Source of the DNA: an uncultured Nitrospiraceae bacterium
GTDB taxonomy: Bacteria; Nitrospirota; Thermodesulfovibrionia; Thermodesulfovibrionales; Dissulfurispiraceae
NCBI GenBank assembly: GCA_947085205.1
Contig: CAMTVO010000014.1
Span: 1 to 64,000 of the forward strand
Direction of reading: 5' to 3'
Length of the DNA: 64,000 nt
The notes under the pieces are model-generated. The model did no database searches, was not told the origin of the DNA, and saw nothing but the letters and a program-made list of their open reading frames with translations. Positions 1 to 12,194 of the stretch are shown piece after piece; within the stretch, counting starts at the first letter, position 1; each line of letters begins with the position of its first letter. A program made the translations under genes and the position numbers.

Positions 1-135
1 GCGTAGCCTCAAAGGTATAATTGTATATATATGTGATATGAAATGCGAATCCGACGCCGACTATCATACGGGTCAACGGCTACGCCCAAGTTCCCACTTC
101 GTGGAAACTTCGCCGACCCGCATCCCGCGTTATGT
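1..135 (+). repeat. attC-like site, 5' part cut by the window edge
   Basis: Inverted repeats GCGTAGCC(1-8)/GGCTACGC(78-85), hairpin 88-110, CGGGTC/GACCCG, ending in core GTTATGT at 129-135. Confidence 0.65.
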
Positions 136-199
136 GCCATTTGCACGACTCAGATTGATTTATTCATAGACAAACTCACAAAATAGTAAGGAGGACAAT

Positions 200-577
200 A
201 TGGCCAAGAAAAAAATATTTATCAGCTTTGATTTCGACAATGACAAGGCATTGAAGGATTTCATTGTTGGTCAAGCCAAGAATGATGACTCTCCGTTTGA
301 AATCAGCGATCATTCTCTGAAAGAGGCCGCCCCCGAGAAGGATTGGCTTGATCGAGCCAAGGCAGCAATCGGACGAGCTGATGTATTCATAATTATGCTG
401 GGACCAAAAACAAAAAATGCTAGCGGGGTACTCAAAGAACTCAACGTCGCTAACGAAAAAGGAAAGGACAAATTCCAAATCATCGGATACCGCGACGGCT
501 CTGAAGACTGGGCAGTTACCGGCGGTGGACGTGTGTATCGGTGGAACTGGGACAACCTAAAGAAGTTACTCTCGTGA
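200..577 (+). CDS. TIR-like domain protein (MTH538/DUF1863, ThsB-like)
   Basis: KKIFISFDFDND start, D-x-S-L-K-E, ADVFIIMLG strand, GVLKEL with Glu at the expected catalytic position; RBS AGGAGG. Confidence 0.8.
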   Translation: MAKKKIFISFDFDNDKALKDFIVGQAKNDDSPFEISDHSLKEAAPEKDWLDRAKAAIGRADVFIIMLGPKTKNASGVLKELNVANEKGKDKFQIIGYRDGSEDWAVTGGGRVYRWNWDNLKKLLS

Positions 578-584
578 GGAAATA

Positions 585-1091
585 ATGCCCAAGGTCAAGA
601 TAGATTCACCGGGTGTTCAGAGCTATTTGGAGATTCTCCAAGGCGTGATCAATCGAATGGCATCAAATAGTTCAGGCTGTAAAACGTGGTGCATAGCTTT
701 GGTATCAGCAATTGTCGTCATCATAGCAGATAAGGGAAAACCTCAATTTGTTTGGATTTCTATTTTCCCTGTTCTTCTCTTCTTGTTTCTCGATGCTTAC
801 TATCTGAGTTTGGAAATGCGTTTCCGTGATCGTTACAATGACTTTATCAGAAAACTCCATGCTGATGATGCCACAATTAAAGATTTGTTTATTGTTACGC
901 CCGGCAGAGGATTTAGAAATATTGCTAAGTCGAGCATCAAGGCATTGCTCTCTCTATCTGTCTGGCCATTCTACGGATTGCTAATTGCCATGATGTTCAT
1001 TATGCGTTTCTGGCTGTTATGTTCATTGATGGGCAAACGATTGCCGACATTTGCTATCCGATTTGCCAAATCGAACATTGTGGTATGTTAA
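585..1091 (+). CDS. Membrane protein with about 3 TM segments, putative effector paired with the TIR protein
   Basis: LQGVINRMASNS...KTW, FLDAYYL..E.RFR.Y motifs and hydrophobic segments; starts 7 bp after the TIR stop. Confidence 0.65.
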   Translation: MPKVKIDSPGVQSYLEILQGVINRMASNSSGCKTWCIALVSAIVVIIADKGKPQFVWISIFPVLLFLFLDAYYLSLEMRFRDRYNDFIRKLHADDATIKDLFIVTPGRGFRNIAKSSIKALLSLSVWPFYGLLIAMMFIMRFWLLCSLMGKRLPTFAIRFAKSNIVVC

Positions 1092-1138
1092 TATGTTAAT
1101 ATAGACAATGTTTAAACTTTCACCAGTATTGGAACAAT

Positions 1139-2041
1139 ATGAAGGTATTTGAGAAGAATGGTCATAAAATAATTTGGGGCGAGGCTTTAGAGGCACTTGC
1201 CACAATTAAAGACAATTCTGTTGATCTTATTTTTGTCGATCCCCCTTACAACATCGGGAAGAAATTTGTAGATCTTCCTGATCGATGGGAGTCAGATGGT
1301 TCATATTTGAACTGGTGTTACAAGTGGCTTGAGGTATGCATCAAAAAATTAAAGAACTCCGGAACGATGTACGTAATGACAGCCACCCAAAATATGCCGT
1401 ACTTCGATATTTTCCTTAGAGCCAAGCTCACTATCCTATCTCGAATTGTCTGGTATTACGATAGTTCAAGTGTTCAAGCCCGCAAGTATTTCGGTTCTTT
1501 GTACGAGCCGATACTCCACTGCGTCAAAGACGAGAATGACTACACCTTTAATGCTAATGATATTCTAGTCGAGGCAAAGACTGGCGCCGTCCGTAAACTG
1601 ATTGACTATAGGAAGCCAGTTCCGACTGTCTATAACTCGAAGAAGGTCCCCGGAAACGTCTGGCATATTCCACGAGTAAGATACCGCATGGACGAATACG
1701 AAAACCATCCGACTCAAAAACCAATAGCGTTGCTGGAAAGGATTATCAAGGCAAGCAGCAACGAGGGCGATCTAGTAGTTGATCCTTTCTCTGGCTCTTT
1801 CACAACTTCCTACGTTGCCAAACAGCTTAAAAGGAAATCAATTGGAATCGAGATCAACGAGGACTACGTAAAGATTGGTTTGCGCCGATTGCAGATTGCC
1901 ACACAGTTCAACGGTGAACCACTACGCAGAGAGCGGAAAACATATGAGCTGCCAGTAGACGAAAACCAAACCGCTCTATACCTATTTGAAAAGAAGGCCA
2001 AATGGAACACGAGTTCACGAAAACGATCAAAAGCATTATAG
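1139..2041 (+). CDS. DNA amino-methyltransferase (beta class, YhdJ-like, probably N6-adenine)
   Basis: DPPY before HPTQKP and DPFSGSFTT (catalytic motif precedes SAM-binding motif). Confidence 0.9.
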   Translation: MKVFEKNGHKIIWGEALEALATIKDNSVDLIFVDPPYNIGKKFVDLPDRWESDGSYLNWCYKWLEVCIKKLKNSGTMYVMTATQNMPYFDIFLRAKLTILSRIVWYYDSSSVQARKYFGSLYEPILHCVKDENDYTFNANDILVEAKTGAVRKLIDYRKPVPTVYNSKKVPGNVWHIPRVRYRMDEYENHPTQKPIALLERIIKASSNEGDLVVDPFSGSFTTSYVAKQLKRKSIGIEINEDYVKIGLRRLQIATQFNGEPLRRERKTYELPVDENQTALYLFEKKAKWNTSSRKRSKAL

Positions 2042-3147
2042 AGAAGAACTTTCCAAAGTCATCGGAGACTATCTTTTCAAAGAGCGAGCTTGTTCAATAT
2101 CTCAATATCAAGACCAAGTCGGCAAACAAAGGTTCTAAGTCGAGAGGGAGTTTTGCCAATCTTTACGCAATCTATGTTTTAGTAGAAGACTACATCGCAA
2201 AAGGGTTCCACAAGTCGGGCAATTACAAAAATTATGAGGGGGCGGTATTCTCAACTCTTTTCAATAGACAAAGAGAACTTCCATTCGGTCAGAAGTTGCA
2301 AAATCACGCACTCAATCACCGAATGAATGAGGAGTTCAAGAAGTTCTTCCCAAACTGCGAATACATACCCATCCTTCGAGATCCTAATACCAATCGATAC
2401 TGGTTCAATCAGAATCTTCTCAAACTTAACGTTGGCTCCAAGAAGCACGATATTTCGGAGTCTGTGATAAAAATAATCGACGCTTACGTTGAGGCAAAGA
2501 GAAGCGCATTTGACCGCTTCATCAAGTTCTGTGAGGGCGCAGAGAAATTCAAAGAACAAGAGCTTGTAGAATTTATCACAGGTTTGCTGGAGCCAACAGT
2601 TGATGCACGCATTTTTGAAATCGTAAGCTACAGCATTCTCAAGTATTACTATCACAATCAGAAACTCTACTGGGGTTTTGATCCCGATAACCTCCAAGAA
2701 GATAATCTCAAACTCTACAAGACTGGGCGTACAAACGCCAACGATGGCGGGATTGACTTCGTTATGAAACCATTAGGGCGGTTCTTTCAGGTTACGGAGA
2801 CCATCGATGTAAAGAAATACTTCTTAGACATCGACAAGATTGAGAAATACCCCATAACATTCGTTGTGAAGTCGTCTGATTCAATTGACACTATCAGACA
2901 GAAAATACAAGAGCAAGCAGAGAGACAGTATTCAATCAAAGCTATTGTATCTCGCTATATGTCCTGCATTGAGGAAATCATCAACATCCCCGAATTACTT
3001 GTCAAGTTTCGGTCGGCAATCGATCAAGGTTTCTTAAACGACATACTCAGCGATATTATCAAACAAAGCAAAGTTGAATTCAACTACGACGAAGACGACT
3101 ACGATGTCAGCGAATACGAGAATGGCAAAGAACCGGAAGACAGCTGA
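2002..3147 (+). CDS. Putative type II restriction endonuclease
   Basis: Overlaps the MTase 3' end; TNANDGGIDF...FFQVT resembles a PD-(D/E)xK-type nuclease core. Confidence 0.7.
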   Translation: MEHEFTKTIKSIIEKNFPKSSETIFSKSELVQYLNIKTKSANKGSKSRGSFANLYAIYVLVEDYIAKGFHKSGNYKNYEGAVFSTLFNRQRELPFGQKLQNHALNHRMNEEFKKFFPNCEYIPILRDPNTNRYWFNQNLLKLNVGSKKHDISESVIKIIDAYVEAKRSAFDRFIKFCEGAEKFKEQELVEFITGLLEPTVDARIFEIVSYSILKYYYHNQKLYWGFDPDNLQEDNLKLYKTGRTNANDGGIDFVMKPLGRFFQVTETIDVKKYFLDIDKIEKYPITFVVKSSDSIDTIRQKIQEQAERQYSIKAIVSRYMSCIEEIINIPELLVKFRSAIDQGFLNDILSDIIKQSKVEFNYDEDDYDVSEYENGKEPEDS

Positions 3148-3161
3148 GGCGAGCAAACGGC

Positions 3162-3228
3162 ACATAACAGAGTGCTTGAGGTTAACACTCAAAGGCTTCG
3201 CCCTTCTCAAGCACTCAAAACGTTAGGC
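3162..3228 (+). repeat. attC-like site 1
   Basis: ACATAAC, 11-bp IR GAGTGCTTGAG(3170-3180)/CTCAAGCACTC(3206-3216), GTTAGGC at 3222; nearly identical to 6067-6134. Confidence 0.85.
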
Positions 3229-3285
3229 GAAAAAACAAGCGATATAAATAATTTGATATACTATAGGTTAAAAGGAGGTCTTTAG

Positions 3286-3471
3286 ATGGCACAACTAAAA
3301 GAGGTCGCTATTGAAACCATAAAACGGTTGCCCGATGAGTGTTCATTAGAAGACATAATGTATGAAATAGACTTTGTAGCCCAGGTCTTAGAGGGGCTGA
3401 AGGATGCTGAGGATGGGAGGTTATTGACTACAGAAGAACTTCTTAAAAGAGTTGAACAATGGGCAAAATAA
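3286..3471 (+). CDS. Small antitoxin of a RelE/ParE-type TA pair
   Basis: 61 aa acidic protein (LPDECSLEDIMY..GLKDAEDGR) overlapping the toxin start; RBS AAGGAGG. Confidence 0.75.
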   Translation: MAQLKEVAIETIKRLPDECSLEDIMYEIDFVAQVLEGLKDAEDGRLLTTEELLKRVEQWAK

Positions 3472-3768
3472 GATGGACTGAAAAGGCAAGCAGTCATTTG
3501 CAAACAATCCATGAATATATTGTCAGAGATTCTAAAACTTATGCAACACGATTCATAAAGTCTCTTATCAAAGCTACCACAAAACTTGAAACAATGCCTC
3601 GTATGTATTGTCTCAGAGCTTGAAAATTATGGTTTCAGAGAAGTCATTTATCAAAATTACAGGATTGTCTATAGAATTATAGATAATGAAGATGTAGAAA
3701 TTCTTGCTGTGCTGCATAGTGCACGGAACTTTAAAAAGGCTTTTTATGAGGAATGGGAATTAAGTTAA
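3459..3768 (+). pseudogene. RelE/ParE toxin, frameshifted near 3605
   Basis: MGKIRWTEKASSHLQTIHEYI...LETMPR in one frame; IVSELENYGFREVIYQNYRIVYRI..VEILAVLHSAR in another. Confidence 0.8.
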
Positions 3769-3790
3769 AAGGAATATCGCTTGTTCCTTC

Positions 3791-3866
3791 GCCTAACAAC
3801 AGGCTAAAAGACAAAAAGAATGAGTGGCAAATGCTATCACACTTCTTTTAGCCTTGAACGATAAAC
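3791..3866 (+). repeat. attC-like site 2 with GAT instead of GTT core
   Basis: GCCTAAC, IR AGGCTAAAAGA(3801-3811)/TCTTTTAGCCT(3844-3854), then TGAAC-GATAAAC. Confidence 0.75.
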
Positions 3867-3924
3867 AACATCGCCCCCTGAGAATAGGTTGAATGAAGAC
3901 ATTACAAAGAATTAGACAAAAGGT

Positions 3925-4897
3925 GAGGTAAAATAAAAAAGAGTGTAAAAAGAAAAACAGGCGGTGTATCCTAAAAGTTGAACGACAATTCAACAAAAAA
4001 GAAAGGAGACACCACCATGAGAAAGAGTAACAGCAGGGAAGACAAATCGTCAAGGGCAACGTATGATTTATTGGAGGGAATGGTTCGGTTAAAGATGCAG
4101 GAGTACATACAGGACATATTGAATGAGGAGATAGCGGAATTTTTAGGGCGAGGCAAATCCGAACGGATAACGGGCATAGATATTCCTCATATATACAGAA
4201 ATGGCAAAGGCAAGCCTCGGAAGCTTGCATTAATGAACGGCACCATAACGATTCGGAGACCGCGCTTGAGGGACGTAAAGGGATTTGAGAGCAAGGTATT
4301 GCCGTTGTTTAAGCGTAGGACGAAGGAATTAGGGGAGATGCTGCCGGAGCTGTATCTGCACGGGCTTGCCAATGGCGACTTTGAGCTTGCCTTACGCGGA
4401 CTATTGGGAGAAGGAGCGCCGCTGTCTGCATCGTCAATCCAGAGATTAAAAGGGAAATGGCAGGCCGAGTATAAGGAATGGAAGGAGAGGGATCTATCTG
4501 GACTGCAAGTCGTATATCAGTGGGCAGACGGCATATATGTCAAAGCGGGTTTAGAGAAAGACAAGGCTGCGCTTCTGGTAATAATAGGCGCATTAAGCAA
4601 CGGACAAAAGACGATACTTGCCTGTGAGCCCGGGTATCGGGAGAGCGTCGCTGTTTGCTTCCGCAAGGCTAAGGACGGATGCGGCAAAGAGGTATAAGAG
4701 GGTCGAAAATGCAACGGCAACGTTATGGAAACTGCTTCAAGTAGCGGAGAAGAACTTTAGGGCGCTTAACAGCCCTCATTTGCTGGCGGATGTTTATGCA
4801 GGAAAAGAGTTCGTTAACGGTGAAATGGTAACCGATATTAGGGCGTCAGAAAGGAAGGCCGCCTAAATGCTTTTTACACACCTATTGACAAGACCCC
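3925..4897 (+). mobile_element. IS256-family element with internal deletion
   Basis: 8-bp direct repeat CAAAAGGT at 3917-3924 and 4898-4905; imperfect 28-bp terminal IRs ending in GTGTAAAAAG; only 973 bp long. Confidence 0.9.
4017..4866 (+). pseudogene. IS256 transposase remnant
   Basis: YRNG, RPRLRD, LYLHGL, WADGIYVK motifs; after GYRES (about 4646) jumps out of frame to the C-terminal FASARLRT..KLLQVAEKNFR segment. Confidence 0.85.
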
Positions 4898-4990
4898 CAA
4901 AAGGTTATAGATAAGGACTATTACCTTTCCGATCATGCAGAAGAAGAAATGCTGGATGACGAGTTAGAAAGAGAAGATTAGGAGGAAAAT

Positions 4991-5132
4991 ATGATTTGTG
5001 AATTTTGTGGAGGACAAACAGCGAAAAAGAAAGTCAAAAGACAACATTGGCTTCATCGGAGGTTGTATATAGTTGAAAATGTTGAGGCTGAAGTTTGCTC
5101 TGAATTTGGAAGTTGAAGTTGTTAGTTTATAA
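4991..5132 (+). pseudogene. YgiT/MqsA-type zinc-finger gene, internally deleted
   Basis: MICEFCGG...LYIVENVEAEVCSE then early stop; LEVEVVSL-stop in another frame; RBS GGAGG. Confidence 0.65.
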
Positions 5133-5148
5133 AGCAGGGGGCGACGTC

Positions 5149-5279
5149 GTTTAACAACAGGCTTTGCGACGCTCCAATTATTTGGATTAATATTTGAGGT
5201 CGCTTCATGCCGCCCGCTTTATTATTGAGATTAAGCTGGATGAGGTGATAGGCACGGCGCAAAGCCTTGAACGTTATCT
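5149..5279 (+). repeat. attC-like site 3
   Basis: GTTTAAC, IR AGGCTTTGCG(5159-5168)/CGCAAAGCCT(5258-5267), TGAAC-GTTATCT. Confidence 0.8.
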
Positions 5280-5352
5280 GCTCGGTGCGGGCAGGGAAGG
5301 AGCAAACAATGTTCTCACCAAATGGTTCTATTTAAAAACTGCCTGCAGCGGC

Positions 5353-5417
5353 AGATAACAGATTCTGAAGGGTAAGGCTCTAAAGAGCTTTGCCCTTCTC
5401 AAATCATAAAATTAAAA
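5353..5417 (+). repeat. Degenerate attC-like site
   Basis: AGATAAC-AGA... shares GCTTTGCCCTTCTCAA with site 4; the core reads ATTAAAA rather than GTT. Confidence 0.55.
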
Positions 5418-5485
5418 CAATCATGCTTGGTGCCATTGTGATATAATGAATTTATAATTATCCCTATGTGAAAGGAGGGTAAAAA

Positions 5486-5698
5486 ATGCATACGCAAATC
5501 AACTATGAAGAAGAAATTATCAAGGAGTTGCAGAATATACCTGATGAACAGATTCTTAATCTTCTCAACATTATACGCATCTTTAAAAAAAGTATCATTC
5601 TGCAGAGGGAAACGGATTTCCATCTCAAGAAAGAATTTAACGAGTGGGATACTTTAAGCGACGAAGCGCTAAGTAATTTTGAGGCTAATTTATCGTGA
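5486..5698 (+). CDS. Putative antitoxin
   Basis: 70 aa, overlaps the MazF-like gene by 4 bp; C-terminal EWDTLSDEAL; strong RBS. Confidence 0.65.
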   Translation: MHTQINYEEEIIKELQNIPDEQILNLLNIIRIFKKSIILQRETDFHLKKEFNEWDTLSDEALSNFEANLS

Positions 5699-6033
5699 CC
5701 TTCGGAGATATTTATCTCGTTGAAATTCCTGCTTCTGGCGGACACGAACAGCAAGGTGTCAGACCTGCAATTATAGTCCAGACTGCTGAAAACATAGATA
5801 GAGTCCCTACCGTTCTTATTGTTCCTTTCACCACACAAATAAAGGCTGCGAATTTCCCATTTACTTTTGTTGTAGAGCCAGATTCTACCAATAACCTGAC
5901 TTCAACATCTATCGCTTTAGTGTTTCAACTAAGAGCTATTGATAAAAAGAGGATGAAGAACAGGCTCGGGAGTTTAAGCACAGGTGATATGCAAGTTTTG
6001 AAACAAAAATTGAAAGATATTTTAAACATATAA
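5695..6033 (+). CDS. PemK/MazF-family endoribonuclease toxin
   Basis: GDIYLV..P..GHEQQGVRPAIIV, VPFTT, QLRAIDKKR. Confidence 0.9.
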   Translation: MTFGDIYLVEIPASGGHEQQGVRPAIIVQTAENIDRVPTVLIVPFTTQIKAANFPFTFVVEPDSTNNLTSTSIALVFQLRAIDKKRMKNRLGSLSTGDMQVLKQKLKDILNI

Positions 6034-6066
6034 ATTTTTAAAGAACTAACCCTGCCCGCAACGAAC

Positions 6067-6134
6067 AGATAACAGAGTGCTTGAGATTAAACATCCAAAG
6101 GCTTTGCCCTTCTCAAGCACTCAAAACGTTAGGC
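6067..6134 (+). repeat. attC-like site 4
   Basis: AGATAAC-AGAGTGCTTGAG...CTCAAGCACTC-AAAAC-GTTAGGC, near copy of site 1. Confidence 0.85.
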
Positions 6135-6181
6135 GAAATTCACGGTTAATTTTGTATAATTAGAATAAAAAGGAGGGAGAG

Positions 6182-6478
6182 ATGCAGACAGTCAAGCAAG
6201 AGGTAAGCGATCTCCTCAGTCGTTTGCCTGATGATTGCACATTAGAGGATGTTCAATATCATCTTTATGTTCTTCAAAAAATTGAACGAGGGCTGAAAGA
6301 CGTAGAGGAAGGACAAGTTTATACACAAGAAGAAGTAGAGAAAAAGATGTCAAATTGGATCTCCTATCTTGAAAATCGTGATTCTTTTCTCAAAGAACTG
6401 AAGGATAAATACTGCTTAACAAAAAGCAAGAAATCGGCACGCACTTCAGATAACAGAGCGCAAACGGTTAATACTTAA
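6182..6478 (+). CDS. Orphan antitoxin paralogous to 3286..3471, with an apparently foreign C-terminal tail
   Basis: First ~59 aa align by eye with the 3286 protein (LPDDCTLEDV..GLKDVEEG..W); the ORF runs into the attC site. Confidence 0.6.
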   Translation: MQTVKQEVSDLLSRLPDDCTLEDVQYHLYVLQKIERGLKDVEEGQVYTQEEVEKKMSNWISYLENRDSFLKELKDKYCLTKSKKSARTSDNRAQTVNT

Positions 6479-6512
6479 ACCGAACGGCTTCGTTTGCGCT
6501 CGGCCGTTAAAA
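6448..6512 (+). repeat. attC-like site 5 (last of the array)
   Basis: AGATAAC, IR GAGCGCAAACG(6456-6466)/CGTTTGCGCTC(6491-6501), GTT at 6506. Confidence 0.8.
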
Positions 6513-7820
6513 CAGCCTTACCGTTACCTCTTCCCCCGCATCGAGTCCGAGTTTATTCTGCGGAATAACAACAATTCCGTCGGCTTTTACAAGGGTGGTT
6601 ATCAATCCTGATTTGCCGAGGACAGGAACGGAGAATAATTCGCCATCCCTTACTTCAAGATAGACCCTTATATGGTCTTCCCTTCCGGCTGATGAAGCAA
6701 TGCTTTTGGACATTTTGGCCTTTATAGTGCGGCAGTGCGGCAGTGTGGCAGTGCGATAGTTTTTTAAAGAATTATCTTTTTCCTTATTGACTGTCGCTCT
6801 ATCGCTCTGTCGCACTATGCCGTTCAATCTTTCCAGAATCGGTCTTATAAAAAGGTCAAAGCAGACGACTATTGCGGCAGGATGTCCAGGAAGTCCTAAA
6901 ACGGGCTTATTATTTATAACCCCGCCTATCATCGGCTTTCCTGGTTTTAATGATACTCCGTGAAAAAGCACTCCCCACTTGCCATCATAGTTTTTGCCTA
7001 TGTCATTTATAATCTCTGCCGTCATGTCTTTTGCGCCGGCGGATGTACCGCCGCTTATCAAGACCATATCGGAATCCTTTAATGATTCCTGAATTATATT
7101 TTTTATAGTTTCATAATTATCTTTGAATATTCCTTTCTTTACAGGCATGCCGCCGTGTTCGATTATAAGGCCTGACAATGTAAATGAGTTGATGTCCCTA
7201 ATCTCCCCCAATTTTAAAGAACTGCTTGCGGTTACTATTTCGTCGCCTGTTGAAATAATTGATACGACAGGTTTTCTGAAAACATCTATTTCGGTTATTC
7301 CAAGTCCTGCGAGCGCTCCTATATCCTGAGCCCTTAATCTGCGGCCTTTTGTAAGAACGATTTCGCCTTTTTTTATATCCTCTCCCTTTTGAATTACATT
7401 TTCATTGGGGGCAACGGACTTCATAACTTCTATAATGTCATCAGAGACTATTTGCGCATGTTCCAGCATCAAAACAGCATCGGCGCCTGCCGGAAGCATG
7501 CCTCCTGTTGGTATCTTTGCAGTCTCTCCTTTTTTGATATCAAAATCAGGGGCAGAGCCCATAAATACCTCATGCTTCAAAGTGATGTATGCCGGAGATG
7601 TATCCTTTGCGCCGAATGTATCCATAGAACTTAGCGCATATCCGTCCATTGTTGAGCGGGAAAATGCAGGAAGGTCCTCAGGTGAGACTATATCAGAGGC
7701 AATGATACGACCGTAGCATTCCTCTATTTTTAAATTTTCGGTGGACAAAAAACTTTCTGGAATAGAGCTTAAAATAAGCCTTAATGCGTCTGAAGGCAAG
7801 AGATAGTTTTTGTCAAACAT
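6507..7820 (-). CDS. moeA: Molybdopterin molybdenumtransferase
   Basis: RSTMDGYA, TGGMLPAGADAV, STGDEI, SGGTS, KPGKP, GLPGHP. Confidence 0.93.
   Translation of the reverse strand: MFDKNYLLPSDALRLILSSIPESFLSTENLKIEECYGRIIASDIVSPEDLPAFSRSTMDGYALSSMDTFGAKDTSPAYITLKHEVFMGSAPDFDIKKGETAKIPTGGMLPAGADAVLMLEHAQIVSDDIIEVMKSVAPNENVIQKGEDIKKGEIVLTKGRRLRAQDIGALAGLGITEIDVFRKPVVSIISTGDEIVTASSSLKLGEIRDINSFTLSGLIIEHGGMPVKKGIFKDNYETIKNIIQESLKDSDMVLISGGTSAGAKDMTAEIINDIGKNYDGKWGVLFHGVSLKPGKPMIGGVINNKPVLGLPGHPAAIVVCFDLFIRPILERLNGIVRQSDRATVNKEKDNSLKNYRTATLPHCRTIKAKMSKSIASSAGREDHIRVYLEVRDGELFSVPVLGKSGLITTLVKADGIVVIPQNKLGLDAGEEVTVRLF
6724..6818. repeat. Inverted pair of 8-nt tandem arrays inside moeA
   Basis: (CGGCAGTG)n at 6724-6760 and reverse-complement-like (GTCGCTCT)n at 6790-6818. 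Confidence 0.8.
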
Positions 7821-7822
7821 CT

Positions 7823-8506
7823 TTAAAGCGGGCTTCTGCTCAGAACAGAGGCATCCTCGCCATTTTGGAACAAGTCCAGAATGCTTGCTATTGATTCGTC
7901 ATGGAGATTTATGATGTATTTCTTGTCGACTCCCCTCTTCCTTTTCTTGTTCAGAAGGGACAGAAATACCATCCCCTTATATATCCTTTTGTTGGTCTTG
8001 AAAGAGAAGATAAAACTGTCGAGGGAGCCTTCTAAAAATCTGTCGTTTCTTCTTTGGACAGTCCTGTCGATGGTCACTGACTGCAGCCAGTATGTTTTAT
8101 TTATTATGCTGTCGGCCTTCATCTCTATCCATGCATGCCCCACATCCCATTTGTCTTCTGTAAGGGCTTCATGGGCAACGGTATCTGCTGCAAGATGGCT
8201 CAGATAGCCGTAGACAAATGCCTTTTCCTGCCCCTTCTTTGCCTGCTCCAGAAGCTTAAGCCCTACATCCCAACTGTGGGAGCTTTTGTCGTCCGGAAGA
8301 TATTTTTTTCCGAGTATCATGTCCGCCATCAGATTTCCGTAAAGAAAATCCTGGCGGTATTTCTTCAATAAGGTCATAATTCCTGTCGGAATTAAAGACG
8401 CATACGAATACATTTCACTTCCTAAATACATGTGAGTCATAGGCCCCCATGCGAACGCGAAAGACGGAACGAATAAAAATCCGAAAAATGCGAATAAAAA
8501 GACCAT
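7823..8506 (-). CDS. Zinc-dependent phospholipase C family protein
   Basis: Signal peptide followed by WGPMTH; GYLSHLAADTVAH; H..IEM.AD. Confidence 0.7.
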   Translation of the reverse strand: MVFLFAFFGFLFVPSFAFAWGPMTHMYLGSEMYSYASLIPTGIMTLLKKYRQDFLYGNLMADMILGKKYLPDDKSSHSWDVGLKLLEQAKKGQEKAFVYGYLSHLAADTVAHEALTEDKWDVGHAWIEMKADSIINKTYWLQSVTIDRTVQRRNDRFLEGSLDSFIFSFKTNKRIYKGMVFLSLLNKKRKRGVDKKYIINLHDESIASILDLFQNGEDASVLSRSPL

Positions 8507-9976
8507 TTATTCTATCTCCTTCAAGAAATTAAGCACCAATCTGACTCCCATCGCTGTAGCGCCTTTAGGCGTATAGGGCTTATCCTTTTCATTCCATGCC
8601 GTGCCTGCTATGTCGAGATGAACCCATGGCATGTCGCCTGTGAATTCCTTAAGGAAATAAGCTGCTGTAACGAGCGAGCCCGTTTTGCCTCCGCTGTTTT
8701 TTATATCGGCTACATCGCTTTTGATATATTCCCTGTATTCGTCATAAAGCGGCATCTGCCATACCCTTTCATATATCTCTTCAGATGCCCTTTTAAGTTT
8801 TTCCATAAGCTCTGTATTATTTCCCATCATTGCTATCGCCTCGCTGCCGAGCGCTATTGAGCACGCTCCGGTCAGGGTAGCGATATCGATTACAGCCTTC
8901 GGCTCATAATATTTTATCGCATATCCGATGGCATCCGCAAGGGCAAGACGACCCTCTGCATCAGTATTTATTATCTCAACCGTCTTTCCTGTTATGGTCT
9001 TAACAATATCTCCAGGCTTCGAGGCACTGCCTCCCGGAAGGTTTTCCGTAGCAGGAAGGATGCCAATAATATTTACAGGCAATTCCAACTCCGAAGCAGC
9101 CTTTATTATGGCAAGCACAGACGCTCCGCCCGACATATCGTATTTCATTTTCTCCATTCCCTCTGCCGGCTTCAGGGATATGCCGCCGCTGTCAAAAGTT
9201 ATGGATTTACCCACAAGGGCTAAAGGCGATCCCTTTCCTCCTTTATATTCTATAACGATAAACTTAGGAGGTTCAGCAGAACCTTTAGATACAGACAAGT
9301 ACGCTCCCATGCCCTCTTCCTCTATATCTTTTTTATCCAACACTTTAACTTTAATCTTCTTACCGGAAAGGGATTTTGCAATATCGCTCAAAACAGTTGG
9401 AGTCATGTCATTGGAAGGTGTATTGATAAGGTCCTTTGCAAAATTCACTGCTGAAACGACTGACTGCAGCCATTTAAGGGGAATGTCCTTATCTTCGCTG
9501 AGTATTGCAGCTGTCTTGATCTCTTTGTTGTTTTCTGTTTTTTTGTATTTCTCAAATCTATAGAGGCTTAAAAGTCCGCCTTCAATGAAATAAAATACCG
9601 GCCTTTGTGACGCAGAAAAACTCTTCGGCAGACGGCTGAATATAATGGTTGATACGGCTGCATCTTTTATTCCTGTTTCCCTGAGATAGGAAAATGCCTT
9701 GCCGCCCGCCTGCCTTATCCTGTCCGATGTTATATCGGCTTGTTTGCCGATCCCTATCAATAAAATTCTTTCCGAATTGATATTCCTGACATGAAGCAGT
9801 GTGAGCTGATTCTGTTTGCCTGTAAACTCTTTTGAATTAATGACCTTCCGTATCAGCCCGCCGATTATTGAATCAATATCAGAATAAATGTCTGTGAAAT
9901 AGTCTTCAAAAAAAGGAAGGATTAATGCATCAGTTTTTATCCCTTCTTCCGGTATGTTTTTAATAAGGACGTTCAT
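8507..9976 (-). CDS. pepA: Leucyl aminopeptidase (M17)
   Basis: GKSITFDSGG, MKYDMSG, NTDAEGRL, HLDIAG. Confidence 0.95.
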   Translation of the reverse strand: MNVLIKNIPEEGIKTDALILPFFEDYFTDIYSDIDSIIGGLIRKVINSKEFTGKQNQLTLLHVRNINSERILLIGIGKQADITSDRIRQAGGKAFSYLRETGIKDAAVSTIIFSRLPKSFSASQRPVFYFIEGGLLSLYRFEKYKKTENNKEIKTAAILSEDKDIPLKWLQSVVSAVNFAKDLINTPSNDMTPTVLSDIAKSLSGKKIKVKVLDKKDIEEEGMGAYLSVSKGSAEPPKFIVIEYKGGKGSPLALVGKSITFDSGGISLKPAEGMEKMKYDMSGGASVLAIIKAASELELPVNIIGILPATENLPGGSASKPGDIVKTITGKTVEIINTDAEGRLALADAIGYAIKYYEPKAVIDIATLTGACSIALGSEAIAMMGNNTELMEKLKRASEEIYERVWQMPLYDEYREYIKSDVADIKNSGGKTGSLVTAAYFLKEFTGDMPWVHLDIAGTAWNEKDKPYTPKGATAMGVRLVLNFLKEIE

Positions 9977-10572
9977 TATGATTGAGTTTTATTGGCCTGT
10001 ATCGCAGAACGATTATATTTATTCATTGCCTTATCGACACCTTTTGTTACGATGCACGCAACAGCATAGGACGTGTTAATTATAACATCTTTTATAAGAT
10101 TTTTTTCAGCCGGCTTAAAATTAGTGAGCACATATTCTTCAACAGGAATATCTTTATTCCGTCCTATACCAACCTTTACGCGTATAAAATCCTTTGCGCC
10201 CAGTTCCTGAATTATTGATTCAACACCCCTGTGTCCGCCGGATGCGCCGTTTTTCCTGATTTTCATATTCCCCGTATCAACATCGAGGTCATCGTGTACG
10301 ACAATCAAGCTGTTTGAAATCTTATCCGGAAATATATTTGCCTTCTTGACTGCCTTTTTCACGGCAAGCCCGCTTCTGTTCATAAAAGTAAGGGGCTTTA
10401 GAAGGATAACATCAACTCCTTCTATAGCCCCTTTGCCTATAACATACATATCCTTTTCTTCCAACCGGATATTATATTCTTCGGATAGCCGGTCTATTAC
10501 ATTAAATCCGATATTATGGCGTGTCCCGGCGTATTTATTACCGGGATTGCCTAAACCGGCAATAACCCACAT
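9976..10572 (-). CDS. pth: Peptidyl-tRNA hydrolase
   Basis: GLGNPG..Y..TRHNIGF, KPLTFMNRSG, VHDDLD, GGHRG. Confidence 0.96.
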   Translation of the reverse strand: MWVIAGLGNPGNKYAGTRHNIGFNVIDRLSEEYNIRLEEKDMYVIGKGAIEGVDVILLKPLTFMNRSGLAVKKAVKKANIFPDKISNSLIVVHDDLDVDTGNMKIRKNGASGGHRGVESIIQELGAKDFIRVKVGIGRNKDIPVEEYVLTNFKPAEKNLIKDVIINTSYAVACIVTKGVDKAMNKYNRSAIQANKTQS

Positions 10573-10594
10573 CTGCCATTACTCCAACACTCCA

Positions 10595-11236
10595 CTACTC
10601 CTTCGTTTCTTCTTTCTTGCCTTTCTTTATCACTTCAGGCTCGGCCGCTTCCACTGCGGCTTCGACCGGTGCCGCAACCTCTTCCTTAATGCCGATTACC
10701 GTTGCAAGAACTTCATGAGGATCGGTAAGAATACGGATACCCTCGCCAATCTTCAAATCACTGACATGGATAGAGTGGCCGATTCCCAGATGGGTTACAT
10801 CCACATCGATATGACCAGGAATCTTGTCGGGCAGGCATTCGATTTCTATATCCCTCAAGCCATGCTGAAGCAATCCTTTATCCCGCTTTACGCCGATGGC
10901 CTCGCCTTTTATGACCACATGCACCGATACCCTCATCGTCTCTGTAGCGGAAATTTCCTGAAAATCCACATGAAGCAGATTGCCTATAACCGGGTCTTTC
11001 TGATAATCCTTTACTATGGCTTGTTTTGTATCGTCAGAGAATTGAAGGTTCACGATCACCTGTTCTCCGGCAGTCTTGCTGATAAACTGGGAAAGCTCCT
11101 TGCCGGAAAGCTGTACAGGCAGGGAATTACCGCCTTTATAAAGAACTGCCGGAATGATTCCGCCCCTCCTCAAAGACCGTGCCCCGCCTTTACCGGATTT
11201 CTCTCTTTTTTCCACATTAAGTGTCGCTCTTTCCAT
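10595..11236 (-). CDS. rplY: 50S ribosomal protein L25 (Ctc form)
   Basis: GKGGARSLRR.GIIPAVLY, HVDF; ATG at 11236 preceded by AGGAGG; prs-rplY-pth order. Confidence 0.93.
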   Translation of the reverse strand: MERATLNVEKREKSGKGGARSLRRGGIIPAVLYKGGNSLPVQLSGKELSQFISKTAGEQVIVNLQFSDDTKQAIVKDYQKDPVIGNLLHVDFQEISATETMRVSVHVVIKGEAIGVKRDKGLLQHGLRDIEIECLPDKIPGHIDVDVTHLGIGHSIHVSDLKIGEGIRILTDPHEVLATVIGIKEEVAAPVEAAVEAAEPEVIKKGKKEETKE

Positions 11237-11252
11237 GTTTCCTCCTATTAAA

Positions 11253-12194
11253 TTATACAAACAATGAACTTACCGAAGTCTCTTCATGAATCCTTTTGAT
11301 GGCCTCTGCCAGAAGTGACGCTACACTTAACACCCTTAATTTTTTGCACGAACTTTGTTTATCGTCCATAGGAATGGTGTCGGTAGTTATAACCTCCTCA
11401 AGCGCAGAGTTGTTTATCCTGTCAATTGCAGGGCCGGACAGCACAGCATGGCTGCATGCTGCAAATACCCTTTTTGCGCCGTTGTCTTTAATCGCCTGAG
11501 CTGCCTGCGTTGTGGTTCCGGCAGTGTCTATCATATCATCAAGGATGATTGCGTCCTTTTCTTTTACATCACCTATTACATGCATAACCTTTGAGACCAT
11601 TGCAGTCTCGCGCCTTTTATCAACAATGGCCAATGAGGCGTCCAATCTCTTGGCAAACGCCCTTGCTCTTTCAACACCGCCTGCATCAGGTGAAACTATA
11701 ACCAGGTTTTCGAACTTGCATTTTTTGATGTAATCAAGTAAGACAGGTGCGGCATATAAATGGTCAACAGGGATATTGAAAAAGCCCTGTATTTGTGCTG
11801 CATGGAGGTCTACGGTCATGATTCTGTTTGTACCTGCTGCAGTGAGCAAATCGGCAACAAGTTTTGACGAGATAGGAACCCTCGGCTGAGCCTTCCTGTC
11901 CTGCCTTGCATAGCCGTAATAAGGGATTACTGCTGTTATCCTCTTTGCCGATGCCCTTTTCAGCGCATCGATAATAAGAAGAAGTTCCATGATATTTTGA
12001 TTTACAGGCGTGCATGTAGGCTGGATTACAAACACATCACCACCTCTTATGTTTTCATTAATCTGAATCATAATCTCACCGTCGCTGAATCTGGTAACGG
12101 TGGTATCTGTCAGGGGGATACCAATGCATTCGCTGACATGATTTGCAAGCGTTCTGTTTGCATTGCCTGTAATGAGTTTTATTCCATTATGCAT
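11253..12194 (-). CDS. prs: Ribose-phosphate pyrophosphokinase
   Basis: FSDGE, PYYGYARQDRK, VSPDAGG, DDMIDTAGT; start at MHNGIK with RBS GGAGG. Confidence 0.96.
   Translation of the reverse strand: MHNGIKLITGNANRTLANHVSECIGIPLTDTTVTRFSDGEIMIQINENIRGGDVFVIQPTCTPVNQNIMELLLIIDALKRASAKRITAVIPYYGYARQDRKAQPRVPISSKLVADLLTAAGTNRIMTVDLHAAQIQGFFNIPVDHLYAAPVLLDYIKKCKFENLVIVSPDAGGVERARAFAKRLDASLAIVDKRRETAMVSKVMHVIGDVKEKDAIILDDMIDTAGTTTQAAQAIKDNGAKRVFAACSHAVLSGPAIDRINNSALEEVITTDTIPMDDKQSSCKKLRVLSVASLLAEAIKRIHEETSVSSLFV

Follow-up and report, generated by a model that had tools for sequence, protein, structure and literature searches.

The window analyzed here, a 64,000-nucleotide stretch of contig CAMTVO010000014.1 from an uncultured Nitrospiraceae bacterium, opens with a tandem array of gene cassettes whose two ends form long inverted repeats. 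These cassettes probably belong to an integron-like system whose driver is not IntI itself but a tyrosine recombinase in which the IntI insertion is missing (called patchless below). The array consists of co-oriented cassettes separated by foldable junction sites, sites of the same geometry accompany patchless recombinase genes in relatives, and the cassettes change neighbors at the G|TT crossover point. Rather than adding a new property to attC, the site recombined by IntI, the long repeats likely mark an integron-like system in its own right: the system would work in an integron-like way but departs from integrons both in the IntI insertion and in the geometry of its sites.

The first-pass annotation had reported that four cassettes are each bounded by their own long inverted repeat, and direct alignment reproduced all of the coordinates and match counts. 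The ends of cassette 1 (129–153 and 3144–3168) are complementary at 22 of 25 positions, those of cassette 2 (3222–3245 and 3774–3797) at 22 of 24, those of cassette 3 (3860–3880 and 5135–5155) at 18 of 21, and those of cassette 4 (5273–5296 and 6050–6073) at 22 of 24. Three of the four are the top three entries in an inverted-repeat listing for positions 1–12000. As a genome-wide null, 9,596,831 pairs of GTT or GAT with AAC or ATC, spaced 150–6000 bp apart, were scored for matches among the 21 bases past the triplet. Of these pairs, 57 reach at least 16 of 21 and 7 reach at least 18, while cassettes 1–4 score 18, 19, 16, and 19 on the same scale. Each end also pairs with its own partner (15, 16, 16, and 16 of 18 for cassettes 1–4) far better than with swapped partners (2–10 of 18). 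A chance origin of the four repeats was rejected by the null and by this difference between cognate and noncognate pairing. The claim that the repeats are mutually unrelated beyond a GTT core survives in part. The noncognate scores agree with it, but the left end of cassette 3 starts with GAT instead of GTT, and end types are not wholly private, because cassette-4-like ends occur with different cargo at five other loci (L018, L101, L106, L186, and L205). The ends of cassette 5 (6128–6454) match at only 8 of 18 positions and form no long repeat.

Terminal repeats of an insertion sequence (IS) or a miniature inverted-repeat transposable element were also considered. This origin was rejected given that the ends vary between cassettes and abut the junction sites. 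The combination of common ends among copies, target duplication, and transposase that marks such elements is absent from the window cassettes; the sole target duplication found in the array lies around an IS256-family insert within cassette 3.

Long end pairing follows the type of recombinase. For this comparison, cassettes were grouped by the adjoining recombinase and accepted if bases 4–7 matched, and a gapped extension score was counted past base 7. Next to patchless genes, the median score is 6, with at least 8 in 12 of 47 cassettes (25 loci). On the IntI side, made up of IntI and class 1 cassettes with no Vibrio superintegron among them, the median is 1, and none of the 53 cassettes (25 loci) reaches 8. 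The window cassettes score 10–13, and 12 cassettes of the closest relatives span 0–16 with a median of 8.5. Medians taken per locus are 4.5 and 1.5, respectively (25 loci each, p = 1.1e-5, with kin among the loci that are not independent). Before a stricter filter was applied, 2 of 44 IntI-side rows had scored at least 8, one a 103-base palindrome and the other an IS-like pair. Both were removed by length and core filters, and a likely mis-parsed cassette on the patchless side (L189, score 12) was kept. Among six further IntI plasmid regions, dfrA1 was the single cassette that could be scored, with a value of 4.

The contrast is sharper when the ends are read base by base. Cognate ends match at bases 8–15 in 89, 83, 49, 9, 64, 74, 62, and 57% of patchless cassettes, versus 79, 34, 25, 34, 32, 32, 21, and 23% of IntI-side cassettes. 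On the IntI side, pairing is down to background past base 8, with a few class 1 cassettes pairing to base 12, which agrees with the earlier statement that classical cassettes pair mainly over their core. With patchless recombinases, pairing stays above background through base 15, save at base 11, where an A in the left end meets a G in the right end; this combination occurs in 28 of 47 cassettes and likewise in 3 of the 4 window cassettes. Long pairing as a routine extension of attC was rejected on the fading of IntI-side pairing after base 8 and the absence of high scores there.

The same profile bears on the idea that the long repeats are a by-product of cassette making, with one end copied onto the other and no role in recombination past the core. 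Stem length does range widely, with scores of 0–16, and one inner site type can carry unrelated outer stems, as sites 1 and 4 do. A by-product would be expected to decay at random, yet the mismatch is fixed at base 11, where one pair type accounts for the 28 of 47 cassettes, and bases 12–15 pair again. This explanation is very unlikely.

The junction sites between the cassettes have a geometry of their own. Sites 1–4 of the window consist of a perfect inner stem of 10–11 bp with 1–3 bases after AAC versus 5 before GTT, and no extrahelical base lies within the stems. The last site has 1 versus 4 spacer bases and the upstream site 1 versus 6, giving an overall asymmetry of 1–3 versus 4–6; across the window and its relatives, the stems measure 9–11 bp. 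As in integrons, the cassettes stand in tandem between RYYYAAC...GTTRRRY boundaries with complementary cognate cores, with the exception of cassette 3, which has GAT, and cassette 5, whose ends are noncognate. The spacers and boxes of classical attC sites are described in the available portion of PMC8352920, and the window sites have neither the 5- and 6-base spacers nor the extrahelical bases in the L box that define attC geometry.

This geometry was surveyed with a custom-made site finder in a patchless group of 60 regions (the 52 of 80 metagenome loci that include downstream DNA and 8 others, with the 41–45% identity relatives L183, L187, and L188 excluded) and in an IntI group of 42 (41 of 80 IntI loci and L191). 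Sites with the window geometry are present in 26 of the 60 patchless regions, 1 of the 42 IntI regions, and 0 of 9 class 1 regions. Classical sites are present in 2 of 60, 23 of 42, and 8 of 9, respectively, the class 1 figure indicating that the same script does find the classical pattern. The pattern of site type 2 matches in 2 of 300 other members of the class, and that of site 1 in 8 of 120 members of the order, whose 3-kb loci are too short for scoring complete cassettes. The first-pass view of these sites as attC served by a cognate IntI is not supported: their geometry is unlike that of attC and goes with a recombinase in which the IntI insertion is missing.

The patchless protein passes the NF040815 profile (237.5, above the cut-off of 220) and fails TIGR02249 (222.7, below the cut-off of 265). 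Its catalytic residues are kept, and about 41 residues of the IntI insertion (~31 + 10) are missing. The family is large (8000 of 8000 scored candidates). In a 17-row tree, patchless and IntI proteins group together, apart from two Xer-type proteins (100/99); IntI proteins make up one clade (100/99), with no resolution among the patchless rows. The patchless gene is oriented toward its array, which lies downstream and is co-directional with it. In relatives, a conserved motif lies downstream of the gene and is followed by the first cassette, which opens with GTT, so that a single docking site with a G|TT insertion point stands beside the recombinase, as in integrons. The array-heading recombinases of these relatives lack the IntI insertion, and the window's own heading gene would lie off the contig. 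Site types of the window itself are found in this setting. Near-identical copies of junction site 2 occur in genomes G049 and G027, directly downstream of a co-oriented patchless recombinase gene or fragment, and in G049 site types 2 and 3 both stand immediately behind the patchless gene. Genome G007, a single contig estimated as 100% complete, has a patchless recombinase, an array, and the long stem, and nothing in it matches above the IntI cut-off.

Contigs from other samples uphold the view of the window units as mobile cassettes. Metagenome contigs from four runs (three studies) were aligned to the window at 90% likeness, a level at which they may derive from related organisms; one run, X1, may be the source sample. 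The contigs break at 128, 3221–3226, and 6124. The match of run X3 starts at 128, at the edge of cassette 1. Different cassettes follow junction site 1 in runs X2 and X3 (breaks at 3222–3226), and in run X2 cassette 2 lies behind another site (break before 3221). In run X6, contigs depart behind 6358, and one has the start of cassette 5 behind a docking-site motif present after 9 of 60 patchless genes and in 0 of 51 IntI regions. Shared sites with other cargo were also seen at L017, L018, and L101. Neighbors change at the crossover, with breakpoints at G|TT. A separate observation concerns a unit at L017:1380–1500 that is made of only a ~37-base inverted repeat between two junction sites; in run X1, a loose end shows a start resembling it.

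Folding predictions agree with the proposal that the excised circle gains a long outer stem, with the circular junction at −32 to −38 kcal/mol on the bottom strand and the linear form at −14 to −22 kcal/mol. The first-pass annotation had suggested that such a stem could favor integration over excision or be a trace of cassette making. On the model preferred here, the long stem likely serves as the outer arm bound by the recombinase when the circular cassette is folded. The cassette would leave as a circle, in which one strand, likely the bottom one, would fold and place an asymmetric bulge between the inner stem and the outer end-stem. These two duplexes would be the two binding arms of the recombinase. 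The exchange with the double-stranded docking site would then involve a single strand and leave a junction for replication to resolve, as happens in integrons. For its outer arm, the enzyme would need more than the 7 bases of IntI, because pairing exceeds background to base 15. The fixed mismatch at base 11, predicted to form a G.T pair in the bottom strand and an A.C pair in the top strand, may stand in for extrahelical bases as a recognition mark. The extra length in the window lineage, to 21–25 bases, may stabilize the folded circle and thereby aid reinsertion. The integration of CTX phage is similar in that XerCD, which has no IntI insertion either, works with single-stranded DNA in folded form and a double-stranded partner site. 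Unlike the window system, that process relies on the host Xer pair and a dif site and involves a single phage genome with no cassette array.

Exchange between double-stranded sites by tyrosine recombinases needs spacer identity. The 7-base spacers of 51 sites comprise 38 distinct sequences, which therefore argues against double-stranded exchange and fits a structure-specific site. A patchless enzyme acting on double-stranded DNA would be an alternative scheme, in which the cassettes are small excisable elements bound at their termini, with the hairpins incidental. The enzyme is indeed without the insertion that is linked to single-strand sites, a stem arm with the 7-base spacer and the next cassette end could make a simple double-stranded site, and strand bias is weak away from base 11. 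Besides the highly diverse spacers, this scheme is opposed by ends that vary among cassettes yet match within each and by inner stems that stay palindromic while their sequence varies. We consider it quite unlikely.

Several observations weigh against a patchless recombinase as the driver of the array or against details of the folded circle. Three of the four genomes checked encode both a patchless recombinase and IntI, with G007 as the exception. The window genome has the patchless gene as fragments only (C24:37978–38303 and C22:5729–5953) and a full IntI near the end of contig C28 (414 bits, above the cut-off of 265). The array starts at a contig edge, and neither recombinase is linked to it in the assembly. 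Some patchless relatives adjoin IS91-type transposase genes rather than arrays. The IntI insertion is described as essential for integron function in the part of PMC8138268 available, which also reports an integron-like subgroup of recombinases in which the insertion is not fully conserved. The site finder is noisy, leaving 42 of 76 patchless-group sites unclassified and giving 7 matches in the other 57 kb of the window. Finally, it is base 11 that points to the bottom strand. A general bias of mismatches toward that strand was rejected, since G.T pairs elsewhere number 8 on the bottom versus 7 on the top, and the bottom duplex is the more stable in only 20 of 28 cases, mostly by ~1 kcal. Folding energies also vary little from one strand to the other.

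Some of these facts would suit an unusual clade of attC sites recombined by the genome's own long-form IntI, with the long stem offsetting the missing extrahelical bases. The gene faces outward at a contig end, IntI is shared by three of the four related genomes just mentioned, and the G|TT point and YAAC core are those of integrons. Opposed to this is the distribution of window-type sites, with 1 of 42 IntI regions versus 26 of 60 patchless regions, as well as the array of G007, which exists without IntI. IntI recognition also depends on the extrahelical bases of attC (PMC3053210, in the portion available), and, on visual inspection of the material accessible from the PMC9668308 supplement, nine archaeal sites with demonstrated IntI1 activity resemble classical ones. 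Such a clade is unlikely, and a patchless enzyme remains the preferred driver.

The IntI gene itself (C28:38402–40720, L010) encodes a long form of 432 amino acids with ~100 extra N-terminal residues. It is accompanied by a single cassette, whose ends show no long match, and by a site truncated where the contig stops. Its closest relatives are in Nitrospirota metagenome-assembled genomes, and the arrays beside such relatives have classical sites and short end pairing; a blastn search of the gene against plasmids gave no match. Two near-identical intI remnants, in which the start is fused to the last third of the gene, lie at C43:1–527 and C15:46000–46440 (L006 and L007), each with a divergent cassette start. 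The patchless fragment on C24 has an internal deletion and runs off its contig.

Patchless recombinases are also found on plasmids, where homologs include TnpF. On an Acinetobacter plasmid (L181:6070–8200), tet(X3) lies directly behind a shortened patchless-family recombinase (55% to P0004). The first 14 bases of this unit are those of window cassette 1, and the base-11 A/G mismatch is present. Group II intron genes lie reversed within patchless arrays at L182:8708–9988 and L189:15720–17036, an arrangement we take to be reminiscent of attC-targeting introns. XerD-labeled genes have been noted near tetX, with no sites described there in the accessible part of PMC11194056.

Judged by the available portions of PMC4889954 and PMC8352920, the system proposed for the window shares with integrons its tandem co-oriented cassettes, its foldable YAAC...G|TT sites, complementary ends that come together only upon circularization, a docking site next to a tyrosine recombinase, and a cargo of defense and toxin–antitoxin genes. 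It differs in a recombinase without the IntI insertion and below the TIGR02249 cut-off, in sites without an extrahelical stem base and with spacers of 1–3 versus 4–6, in end pairing of 12–25 bases with a fixed base-11 mismatch, and in a gene that faces the array. Inverted-integrase integrons of the Treponema type (PMC4889954, in part) were found as integron integrases, whereas the patchless enzyme has no insertion. The integron-like subgroup of Smyshlyaev 2021 (PMC8138268, in part) is alike in having members with a nonconserved insertion, and the tree groups patchless proteins with IntI. For patchless members of that subgroup, NF040815, TnpF, or the "XerD" beside tet(X3), the portions of these sources at hand give no arrays, sites, or end stems. 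A literature search whose coverage stopped short of subscription papers returned no account of extended pairing between cassette ends, nor of arrays under the control of a patchless recombinase. Work by Vaisvila in 2001 on a Pseudomonas superintegron reportedly mentions variable cassette-end repeats, which could lower the novelty of the long ends.

All features of the array lie on the plus strand. The contig begins within a preceding unit, upstream of a junction site at 59–135 that has the asymmetric geometry of the others in its fold and arm register, with ATC for AAC. Cassette 1, whose left end (129–153) is an outer stem arm and whose right end (3144–3168) is its complement, carries four genes in 200–3147: a ThsB/TIR-like protein (200–577), a PDC-M50A-like protein (585–1091), a type II methyltransferase (1139–2041), and a type II restriction enzyme (2002–3147). 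Junction site 1 (3162–3228) consists of AAC, 1 base, an 11-bp perfect stem, 5 bases, and G|TT. Cassette 2 (3222–3797) holds a small open reading frame (ORF; 3286–3471) and a ParE-family toxin gene (Pfam match in 3586–3768), likely a toxin–antitoxin pair. Contigs of runs X1, X2, and X6 have 5 extra bases relative to the window at 3604, and the frameshift in the ParE-family gene may therefore be an assembly slip. Junction site 2 (3791–3866) has spacers of 3 versus 5, a 10-bp stem, and GAT as its crossover triplet. The cargo of cassette 3 (3860–5155) is interrupted by a Mutator/IS256-family insertion (3925–4897) with a broken transposase and an 8-bp duplication (3917–3924 and 4898–4905); runs X2, X3, and X6 join 3916 to 4898, the form without the insert. 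Junction site 3 (5149–5279) has spacers of 3 versus 5, a 10-bp stem, and a long interior. Cassette 4 (5273–6073) carries a small ORF (5486–5698) and a PemK/MazF-family gene (5695–6033), and the site behind it, junction site 4 (6067–6134), has ~92% identity to site 1 despite their different outer stems. Cassette 5 is likely a fusion of two cassettes, because its ends mismatch and the run X6 contigs depart within it. The last junction site (6448–6512) abuts moeA.

Positions 1–127 have ~3x the depth of the adjoining array in run X1, yet are single copy in the assembly; a repeated element therefore likely broke the contig there. Intergenic, strand-symmetric runs of 7–9-base degenerate repeats are found at 6727–6825 and on contigs C19, C43, C54, and C65. 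An Rfam scan of positions 1–7000 gave only two miRNA matches, judged to be chance.

The IntI insertion and the extrahelical bases of attC are usually taken as the defining pair for cassette recombination. On balance, we favor the broader view that the window belongs to a second widespread integron-like platform, with a patchless sister or forerunner of IntI, its own hairpin sites, and a long end arm with a fixed G.T mismatch. Such a platform would have been missed by IntI annotation, would coexist with integrons, and would once have captured tet(X3). If this is true, bacteria would have a second, overlooked route for gathering defense and resistance genes, and there would be a testable route for the origin of integrons from simpler tyrosine recombinases. 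The arrays would also form an unannotated reservoir of defense genes, here restriction-modification, TIR-like, and toxin–antitoxin genes. Given that a patchless recombinase and the end pattern precede tet(X3) on the Acinetobacter plasmid, the system may be relevant to where a clinical resistance gene came from.

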